Below, piece after piece: positions 2,776 through 18,264 of a DNA stretch of 64,000 bases. Position 1 is the first letter of the stretch; each line of letters starts with the position of its first letter. The DNA is from a virus (Duplodnaviria; Heunggongvirae; Uroviricota; Caudoviricetes), in the IMG/VR virus record IMGVR_UViG_3300011115_000934, positions 97,983 through 161,982 of that record. One strand, given 5' to 3'. The notes under the pieces were generated by a model. The model made no database searches. It was given only the letters and a program-made list of their open reading frames with translations, and had not been told where the DNA came from. The translations under genes and the position numbers were made by a program.

Positions 2776-3039
2776 ATGTATAAGACAAGAATTGAGAAAG
2801 ACCATTTTAATGAAATTGGTTCATTAATATCGTCACGGATTATAATTGAGATTCCATTACCTCTTGAATTACTTCAAGATTGCTATTCATACACAGCAAT
2901 GGATGCTCCATCAGAAATTAAAAGAATGTTAATAGAATCAGTTGGAGTAGCTGTGGATGAGATTATTTTGGGTAATAGGCCTAAACATATTGATGAACAG
3001 TGGTTAAAATCAAAACTAACAAAAGTAAAAGTACTATGA
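2776..3039 (+). CDS. hypothetical protein
   Basis: 87-aa ORF, no motif. Confidence 0.45.
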   Translation: MYKTRIEKDHFNEIGSLISSRIIIEIPLPLELLQDCYSYTAMDAPSEIKRMLIESVGVAVDEIILGNRPKHIDEQWLKSKLTKVKVL

Positions 3040-3455
3040 AGGAACTTTATTTATTAAGAGGATTACCTGGATCAGGTAAATCAACATTAGCAAATTCATT
3101 AGGTGGAGTATGGGTTGAAGCAGACCAGTATTTTATTAACCCTGATGGTGATTATGTGTTTGATGCTTCAAAATTGAAATATGCACATAAGTGGTGTCAA
3201 GATACAGTAGAACACTCCATGGTATGGGAGAATAGAATAGAGATGGAAAAAATAACAGGAGGTAGTTCTAGAATCGTAGTATCAAACACATTCACTCAGG
3301 AATGGGAAATGCAACCGTATTATAACTTAGCAGAAAAATATGGATACAGAGTCTATTCTTTGATTGTAGAAAACAGACATGAAGGAGTGAATGAACATGG
3401 AGTACCAGAAGAAAAATTAGTACAAATGAAAAATAGATTTGAAGTAAAGCTATGA
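3036..3455 (+). CDS. P-loop polynucleotide/nucleoside kinase-like protein
   Basis: Walker A LLRGLPGSGKSTLA at N-terminus, size and layout like the T4 Pnk kinase domain/AAA_33; internal ATG chosen, ATGA-style overlap with upstream gene. Confidence 0.6.
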   Translation: MKELYLLRGLPGSGKSTLANSLGGVWVEADQYFINPDGDYVFDASKLKYAHKWCQDTVEHSMVWENRIEMEKITGGSSRIVVSNTFTQEWEMQPYYNLAEKYGYRVYSLIVENRHEGVNEHGVPEEKLVQMKNRFEVKL

Positions 3456-3829
3456 AAGAAACATTTGAACAATACTTACAAAGACTAAAAGACAGACGTA
3501 CAGAAGACGATTACAAGTACACTGATGAAGATTTTATTCAATATGAAGAGTATATTACAGATTGTTGGTTAACAAATTTAAGTGTTTACAAATGTCTTGA
3601 GTTTATGTATTTTGCAGAAAAAGAAATTCAACCAGAACAAATCTGGAATGATGAGAAAAAAGAAGGTCTTAAAGAGTTTATTAATAAACATAAACAAAAC
3701 TCTCGTAACTTCCTACCAGGGTTCATAAAACAATTTGATCCTAAAGAAGGAGAAATAAATGGAGAAGAATGGACAGCAGTTCATTTTTTAAAGTGGTTAG
3801 AATTAAATAAATTTAAAATTGTAAAATAA
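3452..3829 (+). CDS. hypothetical protein
   Basis: 125-aa ORF, overlaps upstream stop (ATGA). Confidence 0.5.
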   Translation: MKETFEQYLQRLKDRRTEDDYKYTDEDFIQYEEYITDCWLTNLSVYKCLEFMYFAEKEIQPEQIWNDEKKEGLKEFINKHKQNSRNFLPGFIKQFDPKEGEINGEEWTAVHFLKWLELNKFKIVK

Positions 3830-4972
3830 ATGGAAAATAATAATAGTGTTTGCTTTATAGCAAAAATAAACGAAGTAAGAGCAATTGAAGGTGCTGATAA
3901 CATCGAACTTGTAATCGCAGGTGGATGGAATGCTATTACTAAAAAAGGTGAATTTAAAGTAGGTGATGAAACAATCATTGCAACTACTGACGCAGTTATA
4001 CCAGAAAAACTTTCTGAGGAAATGGGAGTTGCAAACTACCTAAGAAAAGGTACTAGAGTAAGAACTGTAAAATTAAGAGGAGTTTATTCTGAGTGTTTAA
4101 TTATTCCAATGAAATACCTTAAAGGTAAAGTAACTATGGGTGATTGGGATACTAAAGAAGGAACTGACTGTATGGGATTCTTAGGAATTACTAAATACGA
4201 GCCACCAGTTAAACAAATTCAATTAGCATCAGGTAGAAAAATCAAATGGAGAGATAATCAAAACTTCCATATCTATTATAAATTTCCAAACCTTAAAAAT
4301 GTTGCTGGAATGTTTACAGAAGAAGATGAAGTTCAAATTACTAGAAAGATTCATGGTACAAATGCTAGATATGGTATTGTAAAGAAAGGTACATTGACAT
4401 TCTGGGATAAAGTAAAAAAATTCTTAAGAATTGCTGATGAGTGGATTGACTACGAATACATTTATGGATCTCATAACTGTGAAAAAGGAAGTGACTCTCA
4501 AGGATTCTATTCAACTGATGTTTGGAGAACAGTTGCTGAAAAATATAACATCAAAGAAAAACTTTGGCAATTAGCTTTTACATATGGAGCAAAAAATATT
4601 GGTGAGGGATTAATCCTTTATGGAGAGATCTACGGAGCTGGTATTCAAAAGAACTATGAATATGGTTTAAAAGATATTGAGTTCGTAGGATTTGATATAA
4701 AGGTGAACGGAGAATACCTACCTACAGAGACAACTGCATATGAAATAGTTAATGAATTACAACTTGAGCATGTGAAAGTGCTATATACAGGAACTTGGAA
4801 TCAAGAAGTTCAAGATAAGTTTACATTCAACGACTTCATTTACGGAACAAAAACTCCTCACGAGGGAATTGTAATCAAAGAGATCTCAGGTGATAGAAAA
4901 AAAGTAGCAAAGGTAATCAACCCAGACTATTTGATCTACGGAGAAAAGAATGATGTAGGAGATTCACATTAA
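3830..4972 (+). CDS. RNA ligase (Rnl family, adenylyltransferase lysine motif KIHGTN)
   Basis: N-terminal KINEVRAIEGADNIELVIAGGWNAI..KGEFKVGD signature of DRB0094/Rnl-type RNA ligases plus KxHGxN nucleotidyltransferase motif I. Confidence 0.7.
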   Translation: MENNNSVCFIAKINEVRAIEGADNIELVIAGGWNAITKKGEFKVGDETIIATTDAVIPEKLSEEMGVANYLRKGTRVRTVKLRGVYSECLIIPMKYLKGKVTMGDWDTKEGTDCMGFLGITKYEPPVKQIQLASGRKIKWRDNQNFHIYYKFPNLKNVAGMFTEEDEVQITRKIHGTNARYGIVKKGTLTFWDKVKKFLRIADEWIDYEYIYGSHNCEKGSDSQGFYSTDVWRTVAEKYNIKEKLWQLAFTYGAKNIGEGLILYGEIYGAGIQKNYEYGLKDIEFVGFDIKVNGEYLPTETTAYEIVNELQLEHVKVLYTGTWNQEVQDKFTFNDFIYGTKTPHEGIVIKEISGDRKKVAKVINPDYLIYGEKNDVGDSH

Positions 4973-4984
4973 AATAATTGTTAA

Positions 4985-5010
4985 AAGGCTTGCTTAGGCA
5001 AGCTTTTTTT
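4985..5010 (+). terminator. rho-independent terminator GCTTGC-TTAG-GCAAGC + T7
   Basis: Stem 4988-4993/4998-5003, T-run 5004-5010. Confidence 0.6.
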
Positions 5011-5020
5011 CGTATCTTTA
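4990..5020 (+). promoter_or_regulatory. sigma-A-type promoter TTG-N20-TATCTTTA
   Basis: TTG 4990-4992 inside terminator stem, 20-nt spacer, TATCTTTA 5013-5020. Confidence 0.45.
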
Positions 5021-5045
5021 AGTATTAGAAACAAATAAAAGAGTT

Positions 5046-5123
5046 ATGAAACAAATTAGAACCTTTGCAATTACATTTGTAGCAATGCTAATATTAATGA
5101 TTATTGTAGTAAATTTAAGATAG
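5046..5123 (+). CDS. 25-aa hydrophobic micro-protein (MKQIRTFAITFVAMLILMIIVVNLR)
   Basis: ATG 26 nt after promoter, single TM helix, stop directly abuts next ATG; below ORF-track length cutoff. Confidence 0.3.
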   Translation: MKQIRTFAITFVAMLILMIIVVNLR

Positions 5124-5124
5124 T

Positions 5125-5742
5125 ATGGAAGATTTTTTTGAAGATTTAAAAAACCAGCCTAGACCAAACTTCTTTAGAAGAATTTATCTTTGGTGGGAAC
5201 ATGATGGAAGGTATTATCATAAATATTTTAAACAAGGTGTAAAAAACATTTTATATTGGTTTCCAGTTATCTGGAAGGATAGAGATTGGGATGATCATTA
5301 CATCTTTGAAGTATTAAAACATAAATTAAAAGCTCAAGCTAAATACATTGGTGATAGAGATTTTCATACTAGAGCTAAACTTGATGCTAAAAGAATGAAC
5401 TTATGTGTTAAATTAATTCAATTAATTCAAGATGAACCTTACTCAATGGAGTACATGGACTACCATAAGGACAGAGTATGGTTTACTGATTGTGAAGACA
5501 GACCAGGATCTTCTTTATATAATTCAGAAGAGGTATGGGAAAAGTATGATGATTTCTTTAAAAAATATCCTTTAGTTTATAAAAGAGTACTAAAAGGAGA
5601 AGGGCCATTTACTTTAGATGGTAGAGATGAGGCTGATATGAAAAGAATTATAGCAATGAATATTGCCCATGTTAATCAAGAAAGAGTACATAAACTTCTA
5701 TTTAAAATTTTAGAAGAAAATATTAGAGGTTGGTGGGACTAA
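5125..5742 (+). CDS. hypothetical protein
   Basis: 205-aa ORF, W/Y-rich. Confidence 0.55.
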   Translation: MEDFFEDLKNQPRPNFFRRIYLWWEHDGRYYHKYFKQGVKNILYWFPVIWKDRDWDDHYIFEVLKHKLKAQAKYIGDRDFHTRAKLDAKRMNLCVKLIQLIQDEPYSMEYMDYHKDRVWFTDCEDRPGSSLYNSEEVWEKYDDFFKKYPLVYKRVLKGEGPFTLDGRDEADMKRIIAMNIAHVNQERVHKLLFKILEENIRGWWD

Positions 5743-5752
5743 AGCAAGAAAG

Positions 5753-6160
5753 ATGAAAAAGAAAATATACCTAGACGATGTAAGAACACCAGTTGATCCA
5801 TCTTGGACTGTAGTAAGAAACTACGAGCAATTTGTTGATACAGTTACTTACATTGGATTGGAAAACATAGATGTAATCTCTCTAGATCACGATTTAGGAG
5901 ACACAGCAATGGCTGAATGGCGTAAAAATGTTTACCATAATTATGAATTAAATTATGATAATATTACAGAGAAGACTGGAATGGATTGCACAAAATGGTT
6001 GGTGGAGCAATGGCTTGATGGAGCTCCTGTTGTTGATGTTGTGATACATTCTGCAAATGCAGTCGGTAGTGGAAACATGATGGGGTACATAAACAACTAC
6101 AGACATATTCACAGATTACCTCAGAATTGTGTAAGAGTACAAATAGAACATACAGTATAA
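5753..6160 (+). CDS. hypothetical protein
   Basis: 135-aa ORF. Confidence 0.55.
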   Translation: MKKKIYLDDVRTPVDPSWTVVRNYEQFVDTVTYIGLENIDVISLDHDLGDTAMAEWRKNVYHNYELNYDNITEKTGMDCTKWLVEQWLDGAPVVDVVIHSANAVGSGNMMGYINNYRHIHRLPQNCVRVQIEHTV

Positions 6161-6759: not shown

Positions 6760-6990
6760 ATGATTTGGATTTTATTACTTTACGTTTTACCATTAGTGCT
6801 TAGTATAATAGGAGCATATTTTTTTGTCAAAAGCGACGGAGGAACAGTAACTGAGTTTTTAGAACCACTACCTTTCCTTTTTATTCCTGTAATGAATATC
6901 GCAGCTGTAATAGCAGGAGTGTATATTATTATTGAGAAATTTTTAGATGAGGATGAATCATGGCAAAACTTTAAAAATAAAAAATTATAA
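6760..6990 (+). CDS. small membrane protein (2 TM)
   Basis: Two hydrophobic helices. Confidence 0.5.
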   Translation: MIWILLLYVLPLVLSIIGAYFFVKSDGGTVTEFLEPLPFLFIPVMNIAAVIAGVYIIIEKFLDEDESWQNFKNKKL

Positions 6991-7706
6991 TGAGAATAAC
7001 AGTAATATCAGATACACATACAAGACATGGATTGATTCCTATGGAAGATCTACCAGGTGGAGATCTATTGTTACATGCCGGAGACATAATGAACTCAGGG
7101 TACAATAGAAATGATATCTGGGATTTTTGTCACTGGTTCCAATCTCTAAAGCAATATGAGGATAAAGTTTTCATTGCAGGTAATCATGATAGAATGTTTC
7201 AAAATCATCCTGAGGATGTAAAGGATTGGTTGGATAAGTTCGGAAATATAATTTACCTACAAGACGATGATTTAGTTTTATACGGAGATGGTCCAAATGG
7301 AGATATGCCTGAAAATAATATTCGTATTTACGGATCACCTTGGCAACCAGAATTCTATTCATGGGCATTCAATTTACCAAAAAATGGAATTGAGATAGCA
7401 GGTAAGTGGGAAGCAATTCCTTCCAACACAGACATTCTTATCACACATGGTCCTGCATTTGGGTCTTTAGATACAGTAGCAGGAAGACCTTGGGACGGAT
7501 TAGGATGTGAGCTACTAGCTCAAAGAATTGAAGTTGTAAAGCCAAAGATTCATATCTGTGGACATATTCATTCAGGATATGGTTATGAGTTTAAAGATGG
7601 TACTCACTTCTTCAATGCATCAGTATTGGATGAGAGTTACGAGTACACTCAAAAGCCAATGACGTTTGATTGGGATAAGGAAACAAATACTATTGAATTT
7701 ATCTAA
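6990..7706 (+). CDS. calcineurin-like metallophosphoesterase (second copy)
   Basis: ISDTHTRHG, GDIMNSG, AGNHDR, ITHGP, CGHIHSGYG motifs. Confidence 0.8.
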   Translation: MRITVISDTHTRHGLIPMEDLPGGDLLLHAGDIMNSGYNRNDIWDFCHWFQSLKQYEDKVFIAGNHDRMFQNHPEDVKDWLDKFGNIIYLQDDDLVLYGDGPNGDMPENNIRIYGSPWQPEFYSWAFNLPKNGIEIAGKWEAIPSNTDILITHGPAFGSLDTVAGRPWDGLGCELLAQRIEVVKPKIHICGHIHSGYGYEFKDGTHFFNASVLDESYEYTQKPMTFDWDKETNTIEFI

Positions 7707-10971: not shown

Positions 10972-11433
10972 ATGAAATTTCAATCAACAAAAGTCTTCGA
11001 TGGATACTCTACAGTATTTCGTCAATGGAGAGCAGAAGGAACTCACTGTAGGTTCCTACACGGGTATGGTATTTCTTTCAAAATTACATTTGAAGGAGAC
11101 TTAGACGAAAGAAACTGGGTATGGGACTTTGGAGGAATGAAAAGAGCTAAGACTAAGATTGATGGTATGAATCCAAAAGAGTGGATGGACTATATGTTTG
11201 ATCATACCTACTTAGTGGCTGAGGACGATCCATTCCTAATAACAGCATATGCAATGAGCAACGAGAAGGTAATCCAACTAAGAATAGTACCAGCTACAGG
11301 AGCAGAACAATTTGCTAAATTTATTTACGATAAAGTAAATGCATTCGTACTTGAAGAAACAAATAACAGAGTAAGAGTAGTAAGCGTAGAATTTAAAGAA
11401 CATGAGAAAAATTCAGCAATATATGGAGAGTAA
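10972..11433 (+). CDS. queD: 6-carboxy-5,6,7,8-tetrahydropterin synthase-like T-fold protein (QueD family)
   Basis: CxxxHGY zinc motif (THCRFLHGYG) and T-fold length. Confidence 0.65.
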   Translation: MKFQSTKVFDGYSTVFRQWRAEGTHCRFLHGYGISFKITFEGDLDERNWVWDFGGMKRAKTKIDGMNPKEWMDYMFDHTYLVAEDDPFLITAYAMSNEKVIQLRIVPATGAEQFAKFIYDKVNAFVLEETNNRVRVVSVEFKEHEKNSAIYGE

Positions 11434-11788
11434 ATTAGAATTTCTAACTGAGGTAACAGAAGAGTCCTTACCTAAAGTAAAAAATAGGTATTATAAATTT
11501 GGTGCATCTGAAGTACAAGTAGGAGATCAAATTGCTTTTGGAATAATTGAAAGTATTTCTGATGATGGGAAATTAACATCAACACTTCAATCCTTTGTAG
11601 TAGATACAAGCGGAATACTATACCAGCTATCAGAAAATAAACTATGGTCTCCTAAAGGCAATACAGCTGACAAATTCACAATAGGATTCGCAGCATGGTT
11701 ATTAGATAGCTGGACACACCCAGACTTTATACATAAGTCTCCTGAAGAATTAGTAAAAATTTATAAAGAAAATGGTAGCAAAGCCTAA
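11423..11788 (+). CDS. hypothetical protein
   Basis: ORF overlapping queD stop; start at 11402 or 11423. Confidence 0.5.
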   Translation: MESKLEFLTEVTEESLPKVKNRYYKFGASEVQVGDQIAFGIIESISDDGKLTSTLQSFVVDTSGILYQLSENKLWSPKGNTADKFTIGFAAWLLDSWTHPDFIHKSPEELVKIYKENGSKA

Positions 11789-11795
11789 CCTAACA

Positions 11796-11903
11796 ATGGA
11801 TGAATTCCATCAGTACTTACAAAATGTAATAGACTCTAAATTAGATCTAAGACAAAAAGTAGTAGCAGTAGAAAGATATATAAAACAAATAACAGGTAGA
11901 TGA
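11796..11903 (+). CDS. 35-aa micro-ORF (hypothetical)
   Basis: ATG..TGA, overlaps next ATG (ATGA); unannotated gap. Confidence 0.25.
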   Translation: MDEFHQYLQNVIDSKLDLRQKVVAVERYIKQITGR

Positions 11904-12076
11904 CAAAATTAATTATAAAATTTATTAAATTCCTAGCTCATAAAATAGGTTATGACGTAGCATTAGTAGAATACACTCCTGGAGAAATAAGTCTACAAGG
12001 GGATGTAAGACTTCTAAAATTTGTGGATACTATAAAGTACATGCAACATATTCGTAAAGTAAAAAACATAGAATAA
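11900..12076 (+). CDS. 58-aa hypothetical protein
   Basis: Fills gap before the homing-endonuclease gene. Confidence 0.3.
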   Translation: MTKLIIKFIKFLAHKIGYDVALVEYTPGEISLQGDVRLLKFVDTIKYMQHIRKVKNIE

Positions 12077-12169
12077 TAGGTGTGACAGTTGGTAAAGTTA
12101 GAAGTATATTAAGTTATTAAATTTCTGTATATTTTTCTAATTATGTGATATTTATAATAAACATATCAT

Positions 12170-12988
12170 ATGAAAGACAAAATACATTACGTTTATAAAA
12201 TTATAAACATAAAAAATAATAAAGAGTATATCGGAGTTAGGTCACATCCAAATCCTAAAGAAGATGCTTACATGGGTTCTTCTAGAATTTTAGAAAATTT
12301 ATATAAGTTAGAAGGAAAGGAAAATTTTATAAAAGAAATTCTAAAAACTTTTAGTAGTAGAAAAGAAGCAGAGGATTACGAATCATCTCTCTTAACAGAG
12401 AGTTTCTGCAATAGTCCAAATACCTATAACATAATTAATACTGGAGAGTTTAGCGACAATAAACATGGATTCAGAAAAGATATCTGGTTCGATTACTACG
12501 ATCAGATTAGAGAGAAATATGTACAAGGCAAAACTACAAAAGAATTAGGAGATTATTATAATTGTGACGGCGGTACTATAAGAATGATTGTACAGGATAT
12601 TAAAAGAACAAACGCAGAATCTCAAAAACTCAGATATGATAAATTCCTTACATCAGGTAACCGTGATTTAGAATTAGATAAACATATAGGAGACATAGTA
12701 AAACTGTATGTAGAAGACGTAAAATCATTAATTTATATATCAAAACAATATGGAGTTGATCAAGGTACAATAAAGAGGAGATTGATAGTAGAGGGAGTAG
12801 CTATTAGAGATCATAAAGTATCTCAACAATTAAGAAATGATAATAGAAAACGAGCAAAAGCTTGGAATTTTGAAAAAGAAATCGTATCTTTATTTCTACA
12901 AGGAGTTAATATTCCTACTTTAAGTAGGACATATGAAAGTGATTATATGACAATCAAATCGATATTACAACATAATAAATTAAAATAA
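12170..12988 (+). CDS. GIY-YIG homing endonuclease (free-standing)
   Basis: N-terminal HYVYKIINIKNNKEYIGV...Y.GSS GIY-YIG module + basic C-terminal DNA-binding region; sits between queD and queE. Confidence 0.7.
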   Translation: MKDKIHYVYKIINIKNNKEYIGVRSHPNPKEDAYMGSSRILENLYKLEGKENFIKEILKTFSSRKEAEDYESSLLTESFCNSPNTYNIINTGEFSDNKHGFRKDIWFDYYDQIREKYVQGKTTKELGDYYNCDGGTIRMIVQDIKRTNAESQKLRYDKFLTSGNRDLELDKHIGDIVKLYVEDVKSLIYISKQYGVDQGTIKRRLIVEGVAIRDHKVSQQLRNDNRKRAKAWNFEKEIVSLFLQGVNIPTLSRTYESDYMTIKSILQHNKLK

Positions 12989-12993
12989 GTAAC

Positions 12994-13788
12994 ATGGAAA
13001 TACAAAAAAAGAAATTAGGTAGAATTGAGGATTATAACAAAACACTTCCTATCATTGAGCTATACTCCTGTGTCCAAAGTGAGGGGAGTAGAGCAGGATA
13101 TCCTACAATTGCAATTCGAACTACTGGCTGTACTCACCGCTGCTGGTTCGGAGATGGAGGATGGTGCGACAGTTGGTATAGTTCTATTCATCCAGAAAAG
13201 GGAAGTTCAACTTTCCAAGACATTATTAACATGTACGATGCAAATCCTCACATCACAGAGATGATGTTAACAGGAGGATCACCTACAATGCATCCTGCAT
13301 TAGTAAATGAGCTAACACATTTTGCACATGAAAGAAAAATATTTATCACTATTGAAACTGAAGGAAGTCATTTTCTGGAGACTGACTATCCTATTAATTT
13401 ACTTTCCATATCACCTAAGTTTAGTAACTCGGTTCCTAAAATCGGAGTACTTACACCTCAAGGAGCGGTTACGGATGAGAAAATGATCAAGCAGCATAAC
13501 AAGCTAAGATTAAACTACGATGCAATGTCTAAATCAATTGCATACCACTCCGATTATCATTTGAAACCAGTATGGGATGGAGAGGATCAAGAAGCATTAA
13601 AAGAGATCATGGGTTGTATAAAAATACTAGATATCCCCGAAGATAAAGTATGGTTTATGCCTGCAGGAGATTCAAGAGAAGCCTTATTTAAATCATATCC
13701 AAAAATGTTTGATTGGGTGAGAGATAACGGATTTAGATTAACATGGAGGCCTCACATCATTGCATTTGAAGATCAAAGAGAAGTATAG
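12994..13788 (+). CDS. queE: 7-carboxy-7-deazaguanine synthase (radical SAM, QueE)
   Basis: SCVQSEGSRAGYPTIAIRTTGCTHRCWF matches the QueE N-terminal signature (xQGEGxxxGxPxxFIRxxGC); Cys spacing is atypical: C-x3-C-x7-C. Confidence 0.75.
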   Translation: MEIQKKKLGRIEDYNKTLPIIELYSCVQSEGSRAGYPTIAIRTTGCTHRCWFGDGGWCDSWYSSIHPEKGSSTFQDIINMYDANPHITEMMLTGGSPTMHPALVNELTHFAHERKIFITIETEGSHFLETDYPINLLSISPKFSNSVPKIGVLTPQGAVTDEKMIKQHNKLRLNYDAMSKSIAYHSDYHLKPVWDGEDQEALKEIMGCIKILDIPEDKVWFMPAGDSREALFKSYPKMFDWVRDNGFRLTWRPHIIAFEDQREV

Positions 13789-13790
13789 GA

Positions 13791-13975
13791 TGAGACCAGC
13801 AACTACAGTAGAAACATTGTACACTCTTCATACACTGTGGAGAAAGAACCAAATGGAAACAGCACAAGTAAAGCACTTACTAAAAACTAGCTGCTTCTTA
13901 GACCTAACAAGCATAACAAATGGAGGCATTACAGCTCAATCCATAGACGGTAAAACTAAATATTCAATTAAATAA
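13791..13975 (+). CDS. hypothetical protein
   Basis: 61-aa ORF (ORF-track start 13760 overlaps queE). Confidence 0.4.
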
Positions 13976-13981
13976 ATAAAA

Positions 13982-14251
13982 ATGACATTACAAGAATTAA
14001 TTAATTTAGCAGGAGATAGAGACCTATCAAAATCATATCCAAAAGCAGATGGAGTTTACATCTGGGATTACAAATTACAATACAAGCAAGACTTTGAACT
14101 AGAATTGGTACTAATACCAAGCGACTCAAGTAAAGCAGGATTCAAAGACAAAGTATCAGTACAAGAGCTAATAGATTACGTTTTAGATCAATCTATATTT
14201 ACAGAATTAGAAATTGTAGGAGTAGAAGGATTAACAATAGCAAAAGTATAA
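13982..14251 (+). CDS. hypothetical protein
   Basis: 89-aa ORF. Confidence 0.5.
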   Translation: MTLQELINLAGDRDLSKSYPKADGVYIWDYKLQYKQDFELELVLIPSDSSKAGFKDKVSVQELIDYVLDQSIFTELEIVGVEGLTIAKV

Positions 14252-14252
14252 T

Positions 14253-14831
14253 ATGAAAAAGTTTTTATTAGTACTGCTATTACCAATACTTGGGTTCGGA
14301 CAACTAAGAGACAGCGTTTACGTGAATACAGACATCTATGAGGTGATGTATTCTGAAAAGCTAGAACAGCCACTTTGGGTAAAATACCAAGTAGCTTGTA
14401 CGGATGGTAAAGCATCAAGAAAAGGAATGGACTTTTACACAGACAAAAAGATTCACACATCAGATGCAAAAGATTATGCATTTAATGTTTACGACAAAGG
14501 ACACTGTGCACCAGCAGCAGATTTTAATTGTAATAGAGAAATGTTATTCAAAACATTCTCATATCTAAACTGTACTCTTCAGAATGAAAGATTAAATAGA
14601 ATTCATTGGAGATTATTAGAAGATTATGAAAGAACACTAGCAATTACTGAAGGCCCAGTATATGTCGAAATACGAATGGTCTTTGACACCAATCCCAGAC
14701 GAGTACCTGCAGGTGCAGCTATTCCTTCCGCTTTCTATAAAATTATTAAAACAAGAAGTAAGAAGATTGCATTTTTCTTTAAGAATGAGCAACCAACCAA
14801 GGCAACGTTTAAAGATTACCAGATAAAGTAA
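14253..14831 (+). CDS. secreted DNA/RNA non-specific endonuclease (Serratia-nuclease family)
   Basis: Signal peptide MKKFLLVLLLPILGFG; DKGHCAPAADF..N motif equivalent to the DRGH active site. Confidence 0.65.
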   Translation: MKKFLLVLLLPILGFGQLRDSVYVNTDIYEVMYSEKLEQPLWVKYQVACTDGKASRKGMDFYTDKKIHTSDAKDYAFNVYDKGHCAPAADFNCNREMLFKTFSYLNCTLQNERLNRIHWRLLEDYERTLAITEGPVYVEIRMVFDTNPRRVPAGAAIPSAFYKIIKTRSKKIAFFFKNEQPTKATFKDYQIK

Positions 14832-14833
14832 CT

Positions 14834-15238
14834 ATGGCACTAAAAGCAGGCAATAAGGTCTATCTAAGTTGGGATGACATAGAGGATCTAGTAAACAAAT
14901 TATGTACCACAATCCAAAGAGTAAATCCTGATATAAAAAGTGTAACAGGAATTAAAAGAGGAGGATTAATACCAGCAGTTATGGTCTCACACAGACTGAA
15001 CATTCCTTATGTAGAAACTATTAATGCAAGTACTTTGGTCATAGATGATATTTGTGATACAGGAGAAACGTTAAAAGGATTAGTTACTGGAGTTCCAACA
15101 GCAGTTCTTCACTACAAACCACACACATCAGTATTCACACCAAGCATATTTGCAGAAGAGCACAACGGGGATGAGTGGATAATATATCCATGGGAAAGAA
15201 GAGATTCAGAAGCAATTCAAGATTACTTAAAAAAATAA
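14834..15238 (+). CDS. type I phosphoribosyltransferase (purine PRTase-like)
   Basis: PRPP-binding loop VIDDICDTGETL. Confidence 0.65.
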   Translation: MALKAGNKVYLSWDDIEDLVNKLCTTIQRVNPDIKSVTGIKRGGLIPAVMVSHRLNIPYVETINASTLVIDDICDTGETLKGLVTGVPTAVLHYKPHTSVFTPSIFAEEHNGDEWIIYPWERRDSEAIQDYLKK

Positions 15239-15254
15239 CTAAAATTAAATAAAC

Positions 15255-15455
15255 ATGAACAACTATTGGCAAGTAACAGTACAGTTACAACACGAAAGTG
15301 ATAAAGGAAAGGTACAAAGAATCAATGAGCAGTACATAGTGAATGCAGTATCAGCTACAGAAGCTGAAGCAAAGATCTATAAAGACTTTGAAGGAGAATC
15401 AAACTTTGAAGTAATTCGAGTAGCTCAAACAAAGATTATAAAAATAATTGAGTAA
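15255..15455 (+). CDS. hypothetical protein
   Basis: 66-aa ORF. Confidence 0.45.
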   Translation: MNNYWQVTVQLQHESDKGKVQRINEQYIVNAVSATEAEAKIYKDFEGESNFEVIRVAQTKIIKIIE

Positions 15456-15483
15456 AAAGTTGCCTCTTCGGAGGCTTCTTTGT
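15455..15483 (+). terminator. terminator GCCTC-TTCG-GAGGC + T-rich
   Basis: Stem 15462-15466/15471-15475; the next promoter is TTG 15460 / TATATTAA 15483-15490. Confidence 0.5.
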
Positions 15484-15505
15484 ATATTAATAAAAAAGTA
15501 AAGTT

Positions 15506-16012
15506 ATGTTAAATAATGCAGATCAAGTAGAACAACTTCTACAAACAAACGGTAAAGGAGCAAAGGCTCAAGTAGGTTATGATTTAACTCTCAAAGAAGT
15601 AACAAGAATTAATGGAGGAGCAGTTTTCTCAGATAAAACTGTAGTACATGAGTACACACCTATCGTTCCATTGGATACAACAGACACTTCAATGGATCAG
15701 GACGGAACAGGTAGAATAATCTTTGCTCTTGATCCAGGAACGTACAGCTTGACATTTGAACAAGGAGTAAAGCTTCCAAGCGGTAAGACAGCATTCATCA
15801 GACACAGATCAAGCATCCTAAGATGTGGTGGAATAATTACATCAGGAGTTTACGATCCAGGATTTGAAGTAGATGAGATGGGTGGAGTGTTAATAGCAAC
15901 ACGACCAATTACTATTGAGAAAGGAGCAAGAGTAGCTCAGATTATTATCTTTGATAATTTTGATGCAGAACTATATGCAGGTCAGTGGCAAGGAACTAAA
16001 GACGTAAAGTAA
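15506..16012 (+). CDS. dCTP deaminase/dUTPase-fold protein
   Basis: Beta-rich, G-rich motifs (GxYDPGFEVDEMGG, RVAQIIIF) of dUTPase/Dcd superfamily. Confidence 0.55.
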   Translation: MLNNADQVEQLLQTNGKGAKAQVGYDLTLKEVTRINGGAVFSDKTVVHEYTPIVPLDTTDTSMDQDGTGRIIFALDPGTYSLTFEQGVKLPSGKTAFIRHRSSILRCGGIITSGVYDPGFEVDEMGGVLIATRPITIEKGARVAQIIIFDNFDAELYAGQWQGTKDVK

Positions 16013-16013
16013 T

Positions 16014-16370
16014 ATGAAAACAAAAACAACGGTTATAGTAAAATTAGCAGTGGATGGTTGTCATAACTTTCCCAAAGCAGCAGAGTTATTTCCAGAAGTG
16101 GACTTTCTATCTGACAGACACAGACACATGTTTCACTTCACAGTAGCATGTGAGGTTACCCATTCAGATCGTGATAAGGAATTTATCATGTTGAAAAGAG
16201 ACATTATTGATTACATCAATGGAGAATACTTTAATGACTTTACAAGAACTTGTGAGTTTGATTCAAGATCATGTGAGATGTTAGCAGAGGAAGTGTTAAA
16301 GGAATTTGATGCTGAATGGGTTGAAGTTTGGGAGGATATGGAAAATGGTGCTAAAGTAGAAAAGATATAA
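16014..16370 (+). CDS. second T-fold (PTPS/QueD-like) protein
   Basis: 118 aa; H(17) and RHRHMFHF histidine cluster positioned like the PTPS zinc ligands; weak. Confidence 0.3.
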   Translation: MKTKTTVIVKLAVDGCHNFPKAAELFPEVDFLSDRHRHMFHFTVACEVTHSDRDKEFIMLKRDIIDYINGEYFNDFTRTCEFDSRSCEMLAEEVLKEFDAEWVEVWEDMENGAKVEKI

Positions 16371-16837
16371 TGAAAGTAGTATTTTTATTTGGAGAGATAT
16401 GCTCAGGTAAGAGCACACTTGACTTTGGAACACAATCTTCAAGAATTACTGTATCTAATATAGTAAAGAGGTTGATGCAATCTGAGGATAGAGAGGTACT
16501 GCAAAACTCTAAACATCTTGATAATATAATAGCAGATGAGATTATAGAGGAGATTGAGAACATATATAGCTACGCATATCCATTTTCACATACAGTTATT
16601 ATAGATGGAATAAGACAGTATTCAATCGTAGAGCAAGTACAACAGTGGTTGACTAATTCTACAAAAATAAAACTAGAATACAAATGGTTAGAAGTTGGTA
16701 GAGAAGAACGTAAAAGAAGATTCGAAGCTCGTAAAGATCCTAAGGATACTTTAACATTTGAAGAGGCAGAAAAAAGAGACAATGCGTTGGGATTATCAGA
16801 TTTATTTAGTATATTAAAAGAACAAAATAAGATATAA
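16370..16837 (+). CDS. P-loop kinase, dNMP-kinase-like
   Basis: MKVVFLFGEICSGKSTL resembles T4 gp1 MKLIFLSGVKRSGKDT N-terminus. Confidence 0.5.
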   Translation: MKVVFLFGEICSGKSTLDFGTQSSRITVSNIVKRLMQSEDREVLQNSKHLDNIIADEIIEEIENIYSYAYPFSHTVIIDGIRQYSIVEQVQQWLTNSTKIKLEYKWLEVGREERKRRFEARKDPKDTLTFEEAEKRDNALGLSDLFSILKEQNKI

Positions 16838-16841
16838 AAAT

Positions 16842-17483
16842 ATGGAGTTATTAAAAAAAGCCAATGGCAACTTACCTCGTACAACTGAGGAGAAAGCACA
16901 AATGATCGAACAAGCTGCGAAGTATTACGGAGAGTTCTTAACAGCATTAGGATTCGACTGGAGAGCAGATCAGCATAGTGATCGTACACCTCATCGTGTA
17001 GCGAAAGCATGGGTTAATGATCTTATTGCAGGATCAATCAGTGAAGAGCCAGAGATTACAGCATTCCCTAATGATGAAGGGTACACAGGATTAATTTGTC
17101 AAACTCGTATCCCAGTAATGAGTATGTGTGCACATCACAACCTAACATTCTCAGGAGTAGCTCACGTAGCATACATTGCAGGAAAAGAAAAGACAGATTT
17201 AGTTATTGGTTTAAGTAAATTGAATCGTATTGTAGATTTCTATTCTCGTAGACCAAACATCCAAGAAAGTTTGACTAAACAAATTCATGATCACGTTGAA
17301 AGACTTTGTGTAGGTAATAGAGGAGTTGCAGTAGTGATTGAATCACAACACAACTGTGTAAGATGTAGAGGAATTAAACAAGATTCAGTAATGAAGACTT
17401 CACAAATGTCAGGATACTTCTGGACTAATGAAGTAGGTACTCGTCAAGAATTCTTTAACCTAATTGATCAAAGCAGATATTAA
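16842..17483 (+). CDS. folE: GTP cyclohydrolase I
   Basis: Catalytic/zinc segment MCAHHNLTFSGVAHVAYIAG...VIESQHNCVRCRG conserved in FolE. Confidence 0.85.
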   Translation: MELLKKANGNLPRTTEEKAQMIEQAAKYYGEFLTALGFDWRADQHSDRTPHRVAKAWVNDLIAGSISEEPEITAFPNDEGYTGLICQTRIPVMSMCAHHNLTFSGVAHVAYIAGKEKTDLVIGLSKLNRIVDFYSRRPNIQESLTKQIHDHVERLCVGNRGVAVVIESQHNCVRCRGIKQDSVMKTSQMSGYFWTNEVGTRQEFFNLIDQSRY

Positions 17484-18264
17484 TATGGACGTTTACGTAA
17501 TATCACCAGTAAGTGACTTAGAGCCAATGAAGTTGGGAGATCGCATCTTCGTATTGGCTCACTTATGGATTCAGTTTCCAGAGTACAGAGCCTTTATCCT
17601 AGAACAAAAAGAGCAAGGTAAGTTCATAACATTAGATAATTCAGCAGCTGAAAGAGCATTAGTAACTGAAGATATTCTAATTGAAGTATGTAGAGAACTT
17701 ATGCCTGATGAGGTAATAGCACCAGACGTTTTATTCAACAAAGAGGAAACAATTCTTAACGCAAGAATGTTCAGAGATCGTATGGAGCAAGAGGGATTGT
17801 TAGGAACGATTGATATCTTTTTCTGTCCACAAGGAGAGACTAAAGAGGCATGGCTAAATGCATACAACTGGGCAATAAACCAAAGTTGGATTGATGTAAT
17901 AGGATTTTCTAAAATAGCAATACCAAATGTATTCCTAGAAAACTATACAGACGATCAAGGAATTAAAGAAGCTCGTCACATGGCATACGACTATCTGAAA
18001 GAGAAAGGATTATTAGTAAAGCCTATTCACTGTTTAGGTCAAGGAGATCCAACAGAGTTTGCATATTACGATCATCCAATGATGAGAAGTACAGACTCAG
18101 TGTATCCAGTATTTGCAGCATCACTAGGACAAGATTTCTTAATTGATCATACAACACGTACTCCAACACCTCACAACTTCTTAGAGACGTTTGATATGTC
18201 AGATGTTACTCCTGAACTTATTACCTCTAATGTAGAATTTTTAATTAACCAAGCACGTAAATAA
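17464..18264 (+). CDS. dpdA: tRNA-guanine-transglycosylase-superfamily protein, DpdA-like DNA 7-deazaguanine transglycosylase candidate
   Basis: TLDNSAAE aligns to the TGT DSGGFQ catalytic Asp and RSTDSVYPV to the FDCVxPTR Asp; no zinc subdomain; adjacent to folE. Confidence 0.45.
   Translation: MIKADINMDVYVISPVSDLEPMKLGDRIFVLAHLWIQFPEYRAFILEQKEQGKFITLDNSAAERALVTEDILIEVCRELMPDEVIAPDVLFNKEETILNARMFRDRMEQEGLLGTIDIFFCPQGETKEAWLNAYNWAINQSWIDVIGFSKIAIPNVFLENYTDDQGIKEARHMAYDYLKEKGLLVKPIHCLGQGDPTEFAYYDHPMMRSTDSVYPVFAASLGQDFLIDHTTRTPTPHNFLETFDMSDVTPELITSNVEFLINQARK

Follow-up and report, generated by a model that had tools for sequence, protein, structure and literature searches.

How does a phage that encodes FolE, QueD, QueE and a protein of the DpdA family, and no QueC, modify the guanines of its DNA, and with which base? 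This question is raised by a block of genes (positions 10972-18264) within a stretch of uncultivated phage DNA, positions 97,983 to 161,982 of IMG/VR record IMGVR_UViG_3300011115_000934, which was analysed over its whole length of 64 kb and is hereafter called the window. All genes of this phage fragment lie on the + strand, and its G+C content is ∼34%. As judged from its proteins, it comes from an uncultivated relative of Flavobacterium phage immuto, i.e. an immuto-like flavobacterial myophage. The block is very probably a module for 2′-deoxy-7-deazaguanosine (dDG) that is homologous to the one in phage phiST, and it belongs to a kind already published in 2023 (Cui et al., PMC10516641).

QueC, DpdL and the predicted base

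According to the initial annotation, the block is a phage module for DNA modification with 7-deazaguanines that comprises FolE, QueD, QueE and a member of the DpdA family. All four were identified, and the genes named there were recovered on the + strand, at or near the places assigned to them. It had also noted that QueC is missing, which holds for the whole window. Searches by tblastn with the immuto proteins QueC, QueF and DpdN returned noise only (E ≥ 2.4), with nothing better than E 3 for QueC, and the SGGxDS motif is found in none of the six frames.

The gene that bears most directly on the nature of the base encodes a small extra T-fold protein. DpdL is a QueD paralogue that has been proposed to decarboxylate 7-carboxy-7-deazaguanine (CDG), and in which the motif LxxxHRHxF replaces the CxxxHGH of QueD (PMC10516641). 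The extra T-fold protein of the window is 43% identical over 99% of its length to phiST gp040, which is CGPG_00067 in that paper (tblastn E 3e-22, blastp E 9e-30), and 36% identical to ACP17 DpdL. It displays an exact signature, LSDRHRHMF (16107-16133), which aligns with the CRFLHGY of the window QueD, placing the Leu of the motif on the catalytic Cys of QueD, and it keeps the metal-binding histidines. Pfam has no match for it, PTPS included (E 0.01). The signature is kept in all 44 non-redundant DpdL relatives from the collected loci, and a profile of these relatives matches a profile of 32 QueD sequences with an hhalign probability of 89.7% (E 1.8e-6). The DpdL gene set, i.e. FolE, QueD, QueE and DpdA without QueC, was found entire within the 64-kb window. 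These features identify the extra T-fold protein as a DpdL and hence as a proposed decarboxylase of CDG. The exact window protein was otherwise seen only on marine metagenome contigs (≤4.3 kb), and HMMER, run over the whole set of 1.84 billion representative proteins, yielded 1945 DpdL clusters. PHROGs lists the families of DpdL, of the kinase-like protein encoded next to it and of DpdA3, the TGT-like protein of the module (tRNA-guanine transglycosylase, TGT), as being of unknown function. In a survey of 53 IMG/VR loci encoding DpdA3, together with phage records, which group into 13 lineages at 60% DpdA3 identity, DpdL is found in 10 lineages, none of which has QueC within 7 kb.

Because DpdL is present and no QueC, QueF or DpdN is found in 64 kb, the predicted base is dDG, rather than the deoxynucleoside of CDG (dCDG) or a derivative of 7-cyano-7-deazaguanine (preQ0). 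The absence of QueC is indeed expected, since DpdL would act on CDG directly, as proposed for phiST. In the initial annotation, the choice lay between a dCDG-type base and a queC gene elsewhere, and neither fits what was found. For dCDG to be the inserted base, the pathway would have to end at QueE and the extra T-fold protein would have to play another role. The missing QueC and the as yet proposed activity of DpdL are compatible with this, and insertion of CDG by DpdA3 as a common precursor was considered by the authors of the phiST study (PMC10516641). Yet phiST, which has the same gene set with FolE, QueD and QueE but not QueC, contains 302,000 dDG per 10^6 nucleotides and neither dG nor dCDG (PMC10516641). 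A protein that keeps the metal-binding histidines of QueD, forms 1945 clusters and co-occurs with DpdA3 also argues against a pathway ending at QueE. A dCDG-containing DNA is, therefore, very unlikely in our estimate.

DpdL was also seen in other settings. Among the best 150 of the 1945 clusters, ∼7 carry an unknown C-terminal domain. Such a domain of ∼150-200 aa, found in P0333, P0355, P0362, P0363, P0372, P0373 and P0339, carries a motif such as G[IV]EAEGPxRGxxTLFVPG and may be another partner in the pathway. In ACP17 (L153), PA5oct (L154) and Synechococcus phage BUCT-ZZ01 (L155), DpdL adjoins one or two glycosyltransferase-like proteins of GT1/GT4 type. No DpdA3 is detectable at these three loci with the seeds used, PA5oct and BUCT-ZZ01 also have a phosphoribosyltransferase (PRTase), and the architecture is unlike the phiST type.

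The TGT-like protein and the exchanged cassette

The last gene of the block encodes a predicted DpdA3 of phiST type, a putative guanine transglycosylase within the TGT superfamily. Identity is 39% to phiST gp042 (CGPG_00065; E 1e-56), 45% to a protein of Chryseobacterium phage MA9V-3, 28% to a protein of Campylobacter phage CP21 (E 5e-4) and 27% to immuto DpdA3, and reaches 93% for the best match among the collected proteins. The gene itself stands as initially annotated, but its start at TTG 17464 does not. The most likely start is ATG 17485, because the homologues all align from that Met and FolE stops at 17483. No TGT was found by searching DpdA3 against Pfam (E up to 10) or the DpdA3 profile against PDB sequences, and the link to TGT is mostly carried by the predicted fold. 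An AlphaFold model (predicted local distance difference test (pLDDT) 86.8, predicted template modelling score (pTM) 0.84) was compared with the PDB using Foldseek, and the best 11 matches are all Zymomonas TGT (E 2.5e-6 to 1.7e-4), with template modelling (TM) scores of 0.55-0.59. Three aspartates, D51 (TLDNS), D81 (APDVL) and D204 (STDSV), are invariant in the window, phiST, MA9V-3 and immuto. In hhalign alignments, which are weak (probability 4-5%, E ∼0.01), all three fall on aspartates of phage DpdA proteins, while D81 and D204 fall on those of FDEC and FDCV in E. coli Tgt. They would correspond to Asp95, Asp130 and Asp256, the active-site aspartates of Salmonella DpdA (PMC10164549). The catalytic residues on which the assignment had been made to depend thus align, albeit with weak statistics, and the model has a TGT fold.

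Some relatives of DpdA3 differ in charge or context. The proteins of L051/L052, which are IMG/VR contigs, are very basic (pI 9.65, net charge +20); the others have a pI of 4.5 to ∼6.4 and are mostly acidic. L051/L052 is also the sole DpdL-carrying DpdA3 lineage without a nearby kinase, and it has a PRTase and an apparent type IB GTP cyclohydrolase. Rhizobium phage RHph_I1_18 encodes a DpdA3-matching open reading frame (ORF) of 422 aa that is annotated DUF3310 (L156 8059-9327) and is directly followed by a "dUTPase" with a dCTP-deaminase (DCD) fold; there is no kinase within 6 kb.

At the protein level, the window is collinear with immuto, and both flanks of the module are in the same gene order. 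Identity is high for PolA (88%), GroEL (92%), QueE (91%) and QueD (81%), and lower for the PRTase (66-67%) and the DUF4494 protein (68-69%); the 81% identity seen in the comparison of origin is confined to QueD and QueE. The DUF4494 gene is the last one in common before a swapped region, which extends to the homologue of immuto gp201. In immuto, this region reads MazG-like, gp207, DpdA3, gp205, DpdN, AAA_28 kinase and QueF. In the window, it reads DCD-like, DpdL, AAA_18 kinase, FolE and DpdA3, an order that was found again in metagenome and IMG/VR contigs. FolE is part of the swapped cassette, and is 61% identical to MA9V-3 FolE, 50% to that of immuto and 47% to that of phiST. The late pathway genes have been exchanged as a cassette between the window phage and immuto. 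The left border of the cassette is marked by a terminator-like hairpin; the evidence for it is weak, as a scan of the region for sigma-70 promoters and terminators found nothing above chance.

Thus, the closest genome backbone to that of the window, with the same flanking gene order and an enzyme of the DpdA3 family, carries a different late cassette. Immuto encodes QueC (upstream), QueF, the formyltransferase DpdN and DpdA3, makes formyl-dPreQ1 (fdPreQ1) and has all of its G replaced; the window, likewise a carrier of a DpdA3-family enzyme, has none of the first three and is predicted to make dDG. The DpdN of immuto (L001 17032-17559) is a PurN-like formyltransferase. The natural substrate of PurN is a ribonucleotide bearing an aminomethyl group, which resembles the mononucleotide of 7-aminomethyl-7-deazaguanine (preQ1). 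By this analogy, there are hints that formylation in immuto may also take place on a nucleotide.

The comparison with immuto also bears on whether queC, and perhaps queF, might lie outside the window and lead to a base derived from preQ0 or preQ1 as in immuto. The 64 kb make up only ∼40% of what may be a 160-kb genome, and immuto QueC is located ∼10.5 kb upstream of QueD. The equivalent site, however, is within the window, upstream of a phosphoesterase gene (2076-2774), and is occupied by unrelated ORFs. Moreover, DpdL, the kinase and a DpdA3 of phiST type stand in place of QueF, DpdN and the immuto-type DpdA3, and none of the DpdL lineages has QueC nearby. The best 80 of at least 600 immuto-like QueC loci share no contig with DpdL loci, which is weak evidence. 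We consider an external queC most improbable.

The late genes of the window resemble instead those of phiST, with which it shares DpdL, DpdA3, an AAA_18 kinase (gp041), QueD, QueE and FolE, the lack of QueC and the DpdL-kinase-DpdA3 neighbourhood. The two differ in that FolE is between the kinase and DpdA3 in the window, the slot upstream of DpdL holds a DCD-fold gene instead of the MazG-like one of phiST, and the PRTase is inside the block, whereas phiST encodes one of the same family elsewhere in its genome. Their backbones are different as well, since phiST (genus Cbastvirus, 78 kb) has a Pol III alpha and the immuto-like window a family A polymerase.

Kinase, phosphoribosyltransferase and the level of base entry

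Between DpdL and FolE, the window encodes a P-loop protein whose model (pLDDT 87.9) points to a nucleoside monophosphate (NMP)-kinase fold and hence to a predicted kinase function. Foldseek matches are to the adenylate-kinase-related protein 3lw7 (E 6.6e-6), UMP/CMP kinase and adenylate kinases, and less well to the T4 polynucleotide kinase (PNK) domain. No match was obtained against PDB sequences. A Walker A motif (GEICSGKST), DGIRQ and the lid arginines R114, R117 and R121 are invariant. Homologues are phiST gp041 (E 7e-13, 31% identical) and MA9V-3 XQU63046 (E 2e-22), and in both phages the kinase gene lies between DpdL and DpdA3. By position, between CGPG_00065 (DpdA3) and CGPG_00067 (DpdL), gp041 is CGPG_00066, which was discussed as functionally unassigned and as lacking homologues in the remaining deazaguanine phages (PMC10516641).

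An NMP-kinase-fold gene nevertheless adjoins DpdL or DpdA3 in 11 of the 13 lineages. It is of AAA_18 type in the window, phiST and MA9V-3, whereas Vibrio phage D479 and Aeromonas phage Ahp1 have the DNMK type (PF21448), and immuto and Campylobacter phage CP21 the AAA_28 type. DpdL and a kinase form a single polypeptide in five distinct viral-contig proteins, which come from seven loci and two lineages. DpdL::kinase fusions account for 30 of the best 150 among the 1945 DpdL clusters, with DpdL N-terminal in every case, and a PRT::DpdL fusion for one. No kinase was found near the modules of Seurat, phiSM, Rosebush and VpKK5, all four with a transglycosylase annotated as queuine tRNA-ribosyltransferase. 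The kinase-like protein of the window is the split counterpart of the DpdL::kinase fusions. Taken together, these findings show that it is a conserved partner of DpdL, often fused to it, and a regular member of the pathway neighbourhood. In the literature searched on DpdA3, DpdL, phiST and pre-replicative 7-deazaguanine, no paper was found on a partnership with a kinase or a PRTase or on the cassette swap, and the 2023 paper contains neither the word "kinase" nor "phosphoribosyl" (PMC10516641).

The PRTase of the block is predicted to be a purine enzyme of the xanthine-guanine type (XGPRT), a base specificity suggested by its closest relatives. In phmmer searches against the PDB, 1vdm is followed by Sulfolobus GpT-2 (E 2.6e-10) and E. 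coli XGPRT (E 3.6e-6), and the PRPP (phosphoribosyl pyrophosphate)-binding loop VIDDICDTGETL aligns with those of PDB PRTases, as in the type I fold. Relatives were found in only 28 phage records, most of them with 7-deazaguanine genes. Carriers include immuto, phiST and PA5oct-like Pseudomonas phages, where the gene adjoins DpdL. In Brevundimonas phages such as MaInes, where FolE was the 7-deazaguanine gene considered, the order is ribonucleotide reductase, dNMP kinase, FolE and XPRT. Cyanophage BUCT-ZZ01, found via DpdL, has an annotated XGPRT between QueE and QueD, and another DpdA3 lineage has a hypoxanthine-type (HPRT) PRTase instead. In two QueC-encoding siphophages whose transglycosylase is annotated as queuine tRNA-ribosyltransferase, Vibrio phage VpKK5 (gp32, L072 8275-9198) and Stenotrophomonas phage Bhz54 (L157 4929-5837), a PRT domain is fused to FolE in proteins annotated "GTP cyclohydrolase". 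Within the window's own lineage, a minority of loci has the PRTase. It is thus a recurrent accessory rather than a core component, tied to FolE as much as to DpdL. In the initial annotation, the kinase and the PRTase were both taken to hint at a nucleotide-level route. Both genes proved noteworthy, but the PRTase was rejected as evidence specific to DpdA3 and to a pre-replicative route, because PRT::FolE fusions were found in phages that encode QueC and have another kind of transglycosylase.

A third gene with a possible link to nucleotides is that of the DCD-fold protein. Its best PDB match is 9w59, deposited as a "probable dUTPase" (E 2.8e-9), and it is probably a dUTPase-type enzyme. It accompanies the cassette in several lineages, and the same slot is taken by a MazG-like gene in immuto and phiST; a MazG-like or DCD-like gene of NTP pyrophosphatase type adjoins the module in 9-10 of the 13 lineages. 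Homologues are encoded by Bacteroides phages, e.g. SJC03, that have no 7-deazaguanine genes within 7 kb. The idea that the DCD-fold protein is a dGTPase was dropped as unsupported, given its nearest solved relative and these homologues; for the gene in the DCD/MazG slot in general, such a role is possible but unsupported.

How would these proteins work together? FolE, QueD and QueE would convert GTP to CDG, as established for these enzyme families. DpdL would strip the carboxyl group from CDG, yielding 7-deazaguanine and making QueC unnecessary, a function proposed in PMC10516641. DpdA3 would then use its TGT-type aspartates to swap guanine in replicated DNA for 7-deazaguanine, its presumed substrate. 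The kinase, as an integral partner of DpdL, and the PRTase, as an accessory, may both act on the purine-nucleotide side. The PRTase might convert the guanine released by the exchange to GMP, and so back to GTP and FolE, which would remove a competing substrate and close a loop between guanine and deazaguanine. Post-replicative exchange fits the TGT ancestry of DpdA3 and is the published view for 7-deazaguanine phages, and recycling of guanine toward GTP and FolE agrees with the PRT::FolE fusions. We lean slightly towards this explanation as a whole, i.e. a phiST-type dDG module with exchange at the DNA level and guanine salvage, and regard the question whether insertion is purely post-replicative as evenly balanced.

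Several points weigh against this explanation. When DpdL and DpdA3 were expressed in E. coli, no dDG was formed (PMC10516641). The activity of DpdL is a proposed one across all members, the hhalign statistics of DpdA3 are weak, and the part of the genome beyond the window leaves a small chance for QueC. DpdA3 is strongly acidic (pI 4.57, net charge −20), a weak hint against action on DNA, as bona fide TGT and DpdA proteins are mildly acidic too. This acidity, the complete replacement of G, the association with a kinase, and the DpdL::kinase and PRT::DpdL fusions would fit entry of the base at the nucleotide level about as well. Finally, DpdL and the kinase are not consecutive in the guanine-salvage loop, so that their frequent fusion is poorly explained.

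We therefore also considered that 7-deazaguanine enters DNA, at least in part, from the nucleotide pool before replication, which appears possible but doubtful. In a first version, CDG or 7-deazaguanine would be phosphoribosylated by the PRTase or a host enzyme, DpdL would decarboxylate the mononucleotide, the kinase would phosphorylate it, and ribonucleotide reductase would lead to 7-deaza-dGTP for incorporation by the polymerase. In a second version, dGMP would be the substrate on which DpdA3 swaps the base, and the resulting 7-deaza-dGMP would be phosphorylated by the kinase. In either case, the action of DpdA3 on DNA would be absent or mere clean-up. The first version leaves DpdA3 without a necessary role, and every characterized member of the TGT/DpdA superfamily acts on a polynucleotide, with DpdA3 retaining the catalytic aspartates. 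In favour of a nucleotide-level route is the kinase, whose presence beside DpdA3 or DpdL in most lineages, drawn from three families, looks like non-orthologous displacement. The fusions imply the order PRT, DpdL and kinase, and a gene of NTP pyrophosphatase type is usually close by. Seurat, phiSM and Rosebush, which have another type of DpdA, have neither kinase nor PRTase near the module, and VpKK5 has no kinase despite the PRT domain on its FolE. However, DNMK beside DpdA3 in T4-like phages could be housekeeping, the PRTase is lacking in most loci of the window's lineage, and the PRT::FolE fusions in QueC phages tie this enzyme to GTP supply rather than to deazaguanine nucleotides. The window module has no convincing dGTPase either; its DCD-fold protein seems to be of a pyrimidine type and also occurs without 7-deazaguanine genes. 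Consistent with nucleotide-level entry are further published findings on DpdA3 phages, namely full replacement of G, the failure of DpdL and DpdA3 alone in E. coli and the nucleoside of 7-amido-7-deazaguanine (ADG) in CP220-infected cells (PMC10516641).

Known systems offer parallels. Phage T4 replaces a base completely before replication, using the dCTPase gp56, the dCMP hydroxymethylase gp42 and the dNMP kinase gp1. Were the nucleotide-level route true, the window would have in common with T4 the clustering of a gene of NTP pyrophosphatase type, a base-modifying enzyme and a dNMP kinase, together with complete replacement. This may be mere resemblance. The window encodes a TGT-family enzyme and T4 does not, and no dGMP-modifying enzyme is known in the window system. 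A closer chemical precedent is the tubercidin pathway of Streptomyces, which also starts from CDG without QueC and combines a PRTase (TubE, CDG:PRPP) with a decarboxylase encoded in the cluster (PMC6112128; bioRxiv 10.64898/2026.04.15.718813). It differs in that the product is a secreted nucleoside antibiotic, the decarboxylase is of the UbiD family and not a T-fold protein, and there is no TGT-like enzyme; it may serve as a working analogy for the fusions of DpdL with a PRT or a kinase domain. In the bacterial Dpd system (PMC10164549), a TGT-like DNA transglycosylase with the same aspartates requires a separate ATP-using partner, DpdB. Unlike the window kinase, DpdB is a ParB-like ATPase and not of NMP-kinase fold, the base is preQ0, and modification is sparse, sequence-specific and coupled to restriction.

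Other genes of the block and implications

The genes of the block are listed in Table 1.

Table 1. Features of the 7-deazaguanine block in the window, with the main evidence for each
Feature	Position	Strand	Evidence
QueD, 6-carboxy-tetrahydropterin synthase	10972-11433	+	Pfam PTPS, E 1.1e-14
Unknown ORF	11402-11788	+	
GIY-YIG homing endonuclease	12170-12988	+	Pfam SegE_GIY-YIG, E 2.3e-6
QueE, CDG synthase	12994-13788	+	Pfam Radical_SAM
Small conserved protein, homologue of immuto gp212	13982-14251	+	59% identical to gp212
Non-specific DNA/RNA endonuclease	14253-14831	+	Endonuclease_NS, E 4.8e-26
Predicted small purine (xanthine-guanine type) PRTase	14834-15238	+	PDB 1vdm, E 5.5e-12; homologue of immuto gp211
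DUF4494 small protein, homologue of immuto gp209	15255-15455	+	Pfam DUF4494, E 5.4e-11
Terminator-like GC hairpin, then T-rich run	15462-15475	+	Consensus scan
dCTP-deaminase/dUTPase-fold protein	15506-16012	+	Pfam DCD, E 1.3e-11
DpdL, proposed CDG decarboxylase, 118 aa	16014-16370	+	phiST gp040 homology, signature motif
Predicted NMP-kinase-fold P-loop protein	16370-16837	+	AlphaFold/Foldseek; Pfam AAA_18 below threshold
FolE, GTP cyclohydrolase I	16842-17483	+	Pfam, E 1.2e-43
Predicted DpdA3, TGT superfamily, phiST type	17485-18264	+	phiST gp042 homology, modelled fold

The early enzymes show sequence features of their own. QueD, which is 64% identical to phiST QueD, displays CxxxHGY (CRFLHGY) instead of the signature CxxxHGH, a Tyr standing in place of the second His of the motif, a zinc ligand. 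A census of 32 QueD sequences, 28 from DpdA3 loci and four from comparison phages, found CxxxHGY in at least 26 of the 28; two of the 32 are without the motif. QueE is 73% identical to its phiST counterpart, and its cluster motif (near 13126-13167) is Cx3Cx7C (CTHRCWFGDGGWCD), as compared with the usual Cx3Cx2C of radical-SAM enzymes. Among 45 QueE sequences of the surveyed deazaguanine loci, 24 have this wider spacing and 10 the canonical one.

Not all genes of the block belong to the pathway. The GIY-YIG homing endonuclease gene, which interrupts QueD-QueE and is without a counterpart in immuto, is an insertion outside the pathway. Relatives have other homing endonucleases at nearby positions, e.g. 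an I-HmuI-like gene in L008. The small protein encoded downstream of QueE has no Pfam or PHROG family. The non-specific nuclease has a hydrophobic, signal-peptide-like N terminus and is orthologous to immuto gp012 (77% identity), a protein encoded elsewhere in the immuto genome. Few relatives (L017, L018 and L020) have the nuclease gene in this position, most related modules lack it, and it is a backbone gene. The nuclease and the DCD-fold protein are thus both present in the block, as initially annotated, but neither is specific to the module, as shown by the location of gp012 in immuto and the Bacteroides homologues, respectively. Elsewhere in the window, an RNA-repair-like cluster (3000-6160) encodes an AAA_33 kinase (3000-3455), an OB-domain RNA ligase (3830-4972) and a protein with a cyclic-phosphate-processing receiver domain (5753-6160); a metallophosphoesterase is encoded at 6990-7706.

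If the module works as in phiST, every G in the DNA of this phage is predicted to be replaced by 7-deazaguanine, which would likely confer resistance to restriction enzymes with G in their sites, as shown for immuto. Two close relatives that have early genes and flanks in common and different late cassettes provide a clean example of how modification chemistry is exchanged by module. A nucleotide-level route, if true, would be the first known case of a 7-deazapurine entering DNA by a pre-replicative pathway; the published inference that all 7-deazaguanine phages insert the base after replication would then fall, and the failure of DpdL and DpdA3 in E. coli would be explained. The analysis adds the cassette swap, a kinase that is conserved beside DpdL and often fused to it, and a PRTase family that tracks deazaguanine modules. 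These observations make the mechanistic question, whether G is replaced via DNA or via nucleotides, directly testable.

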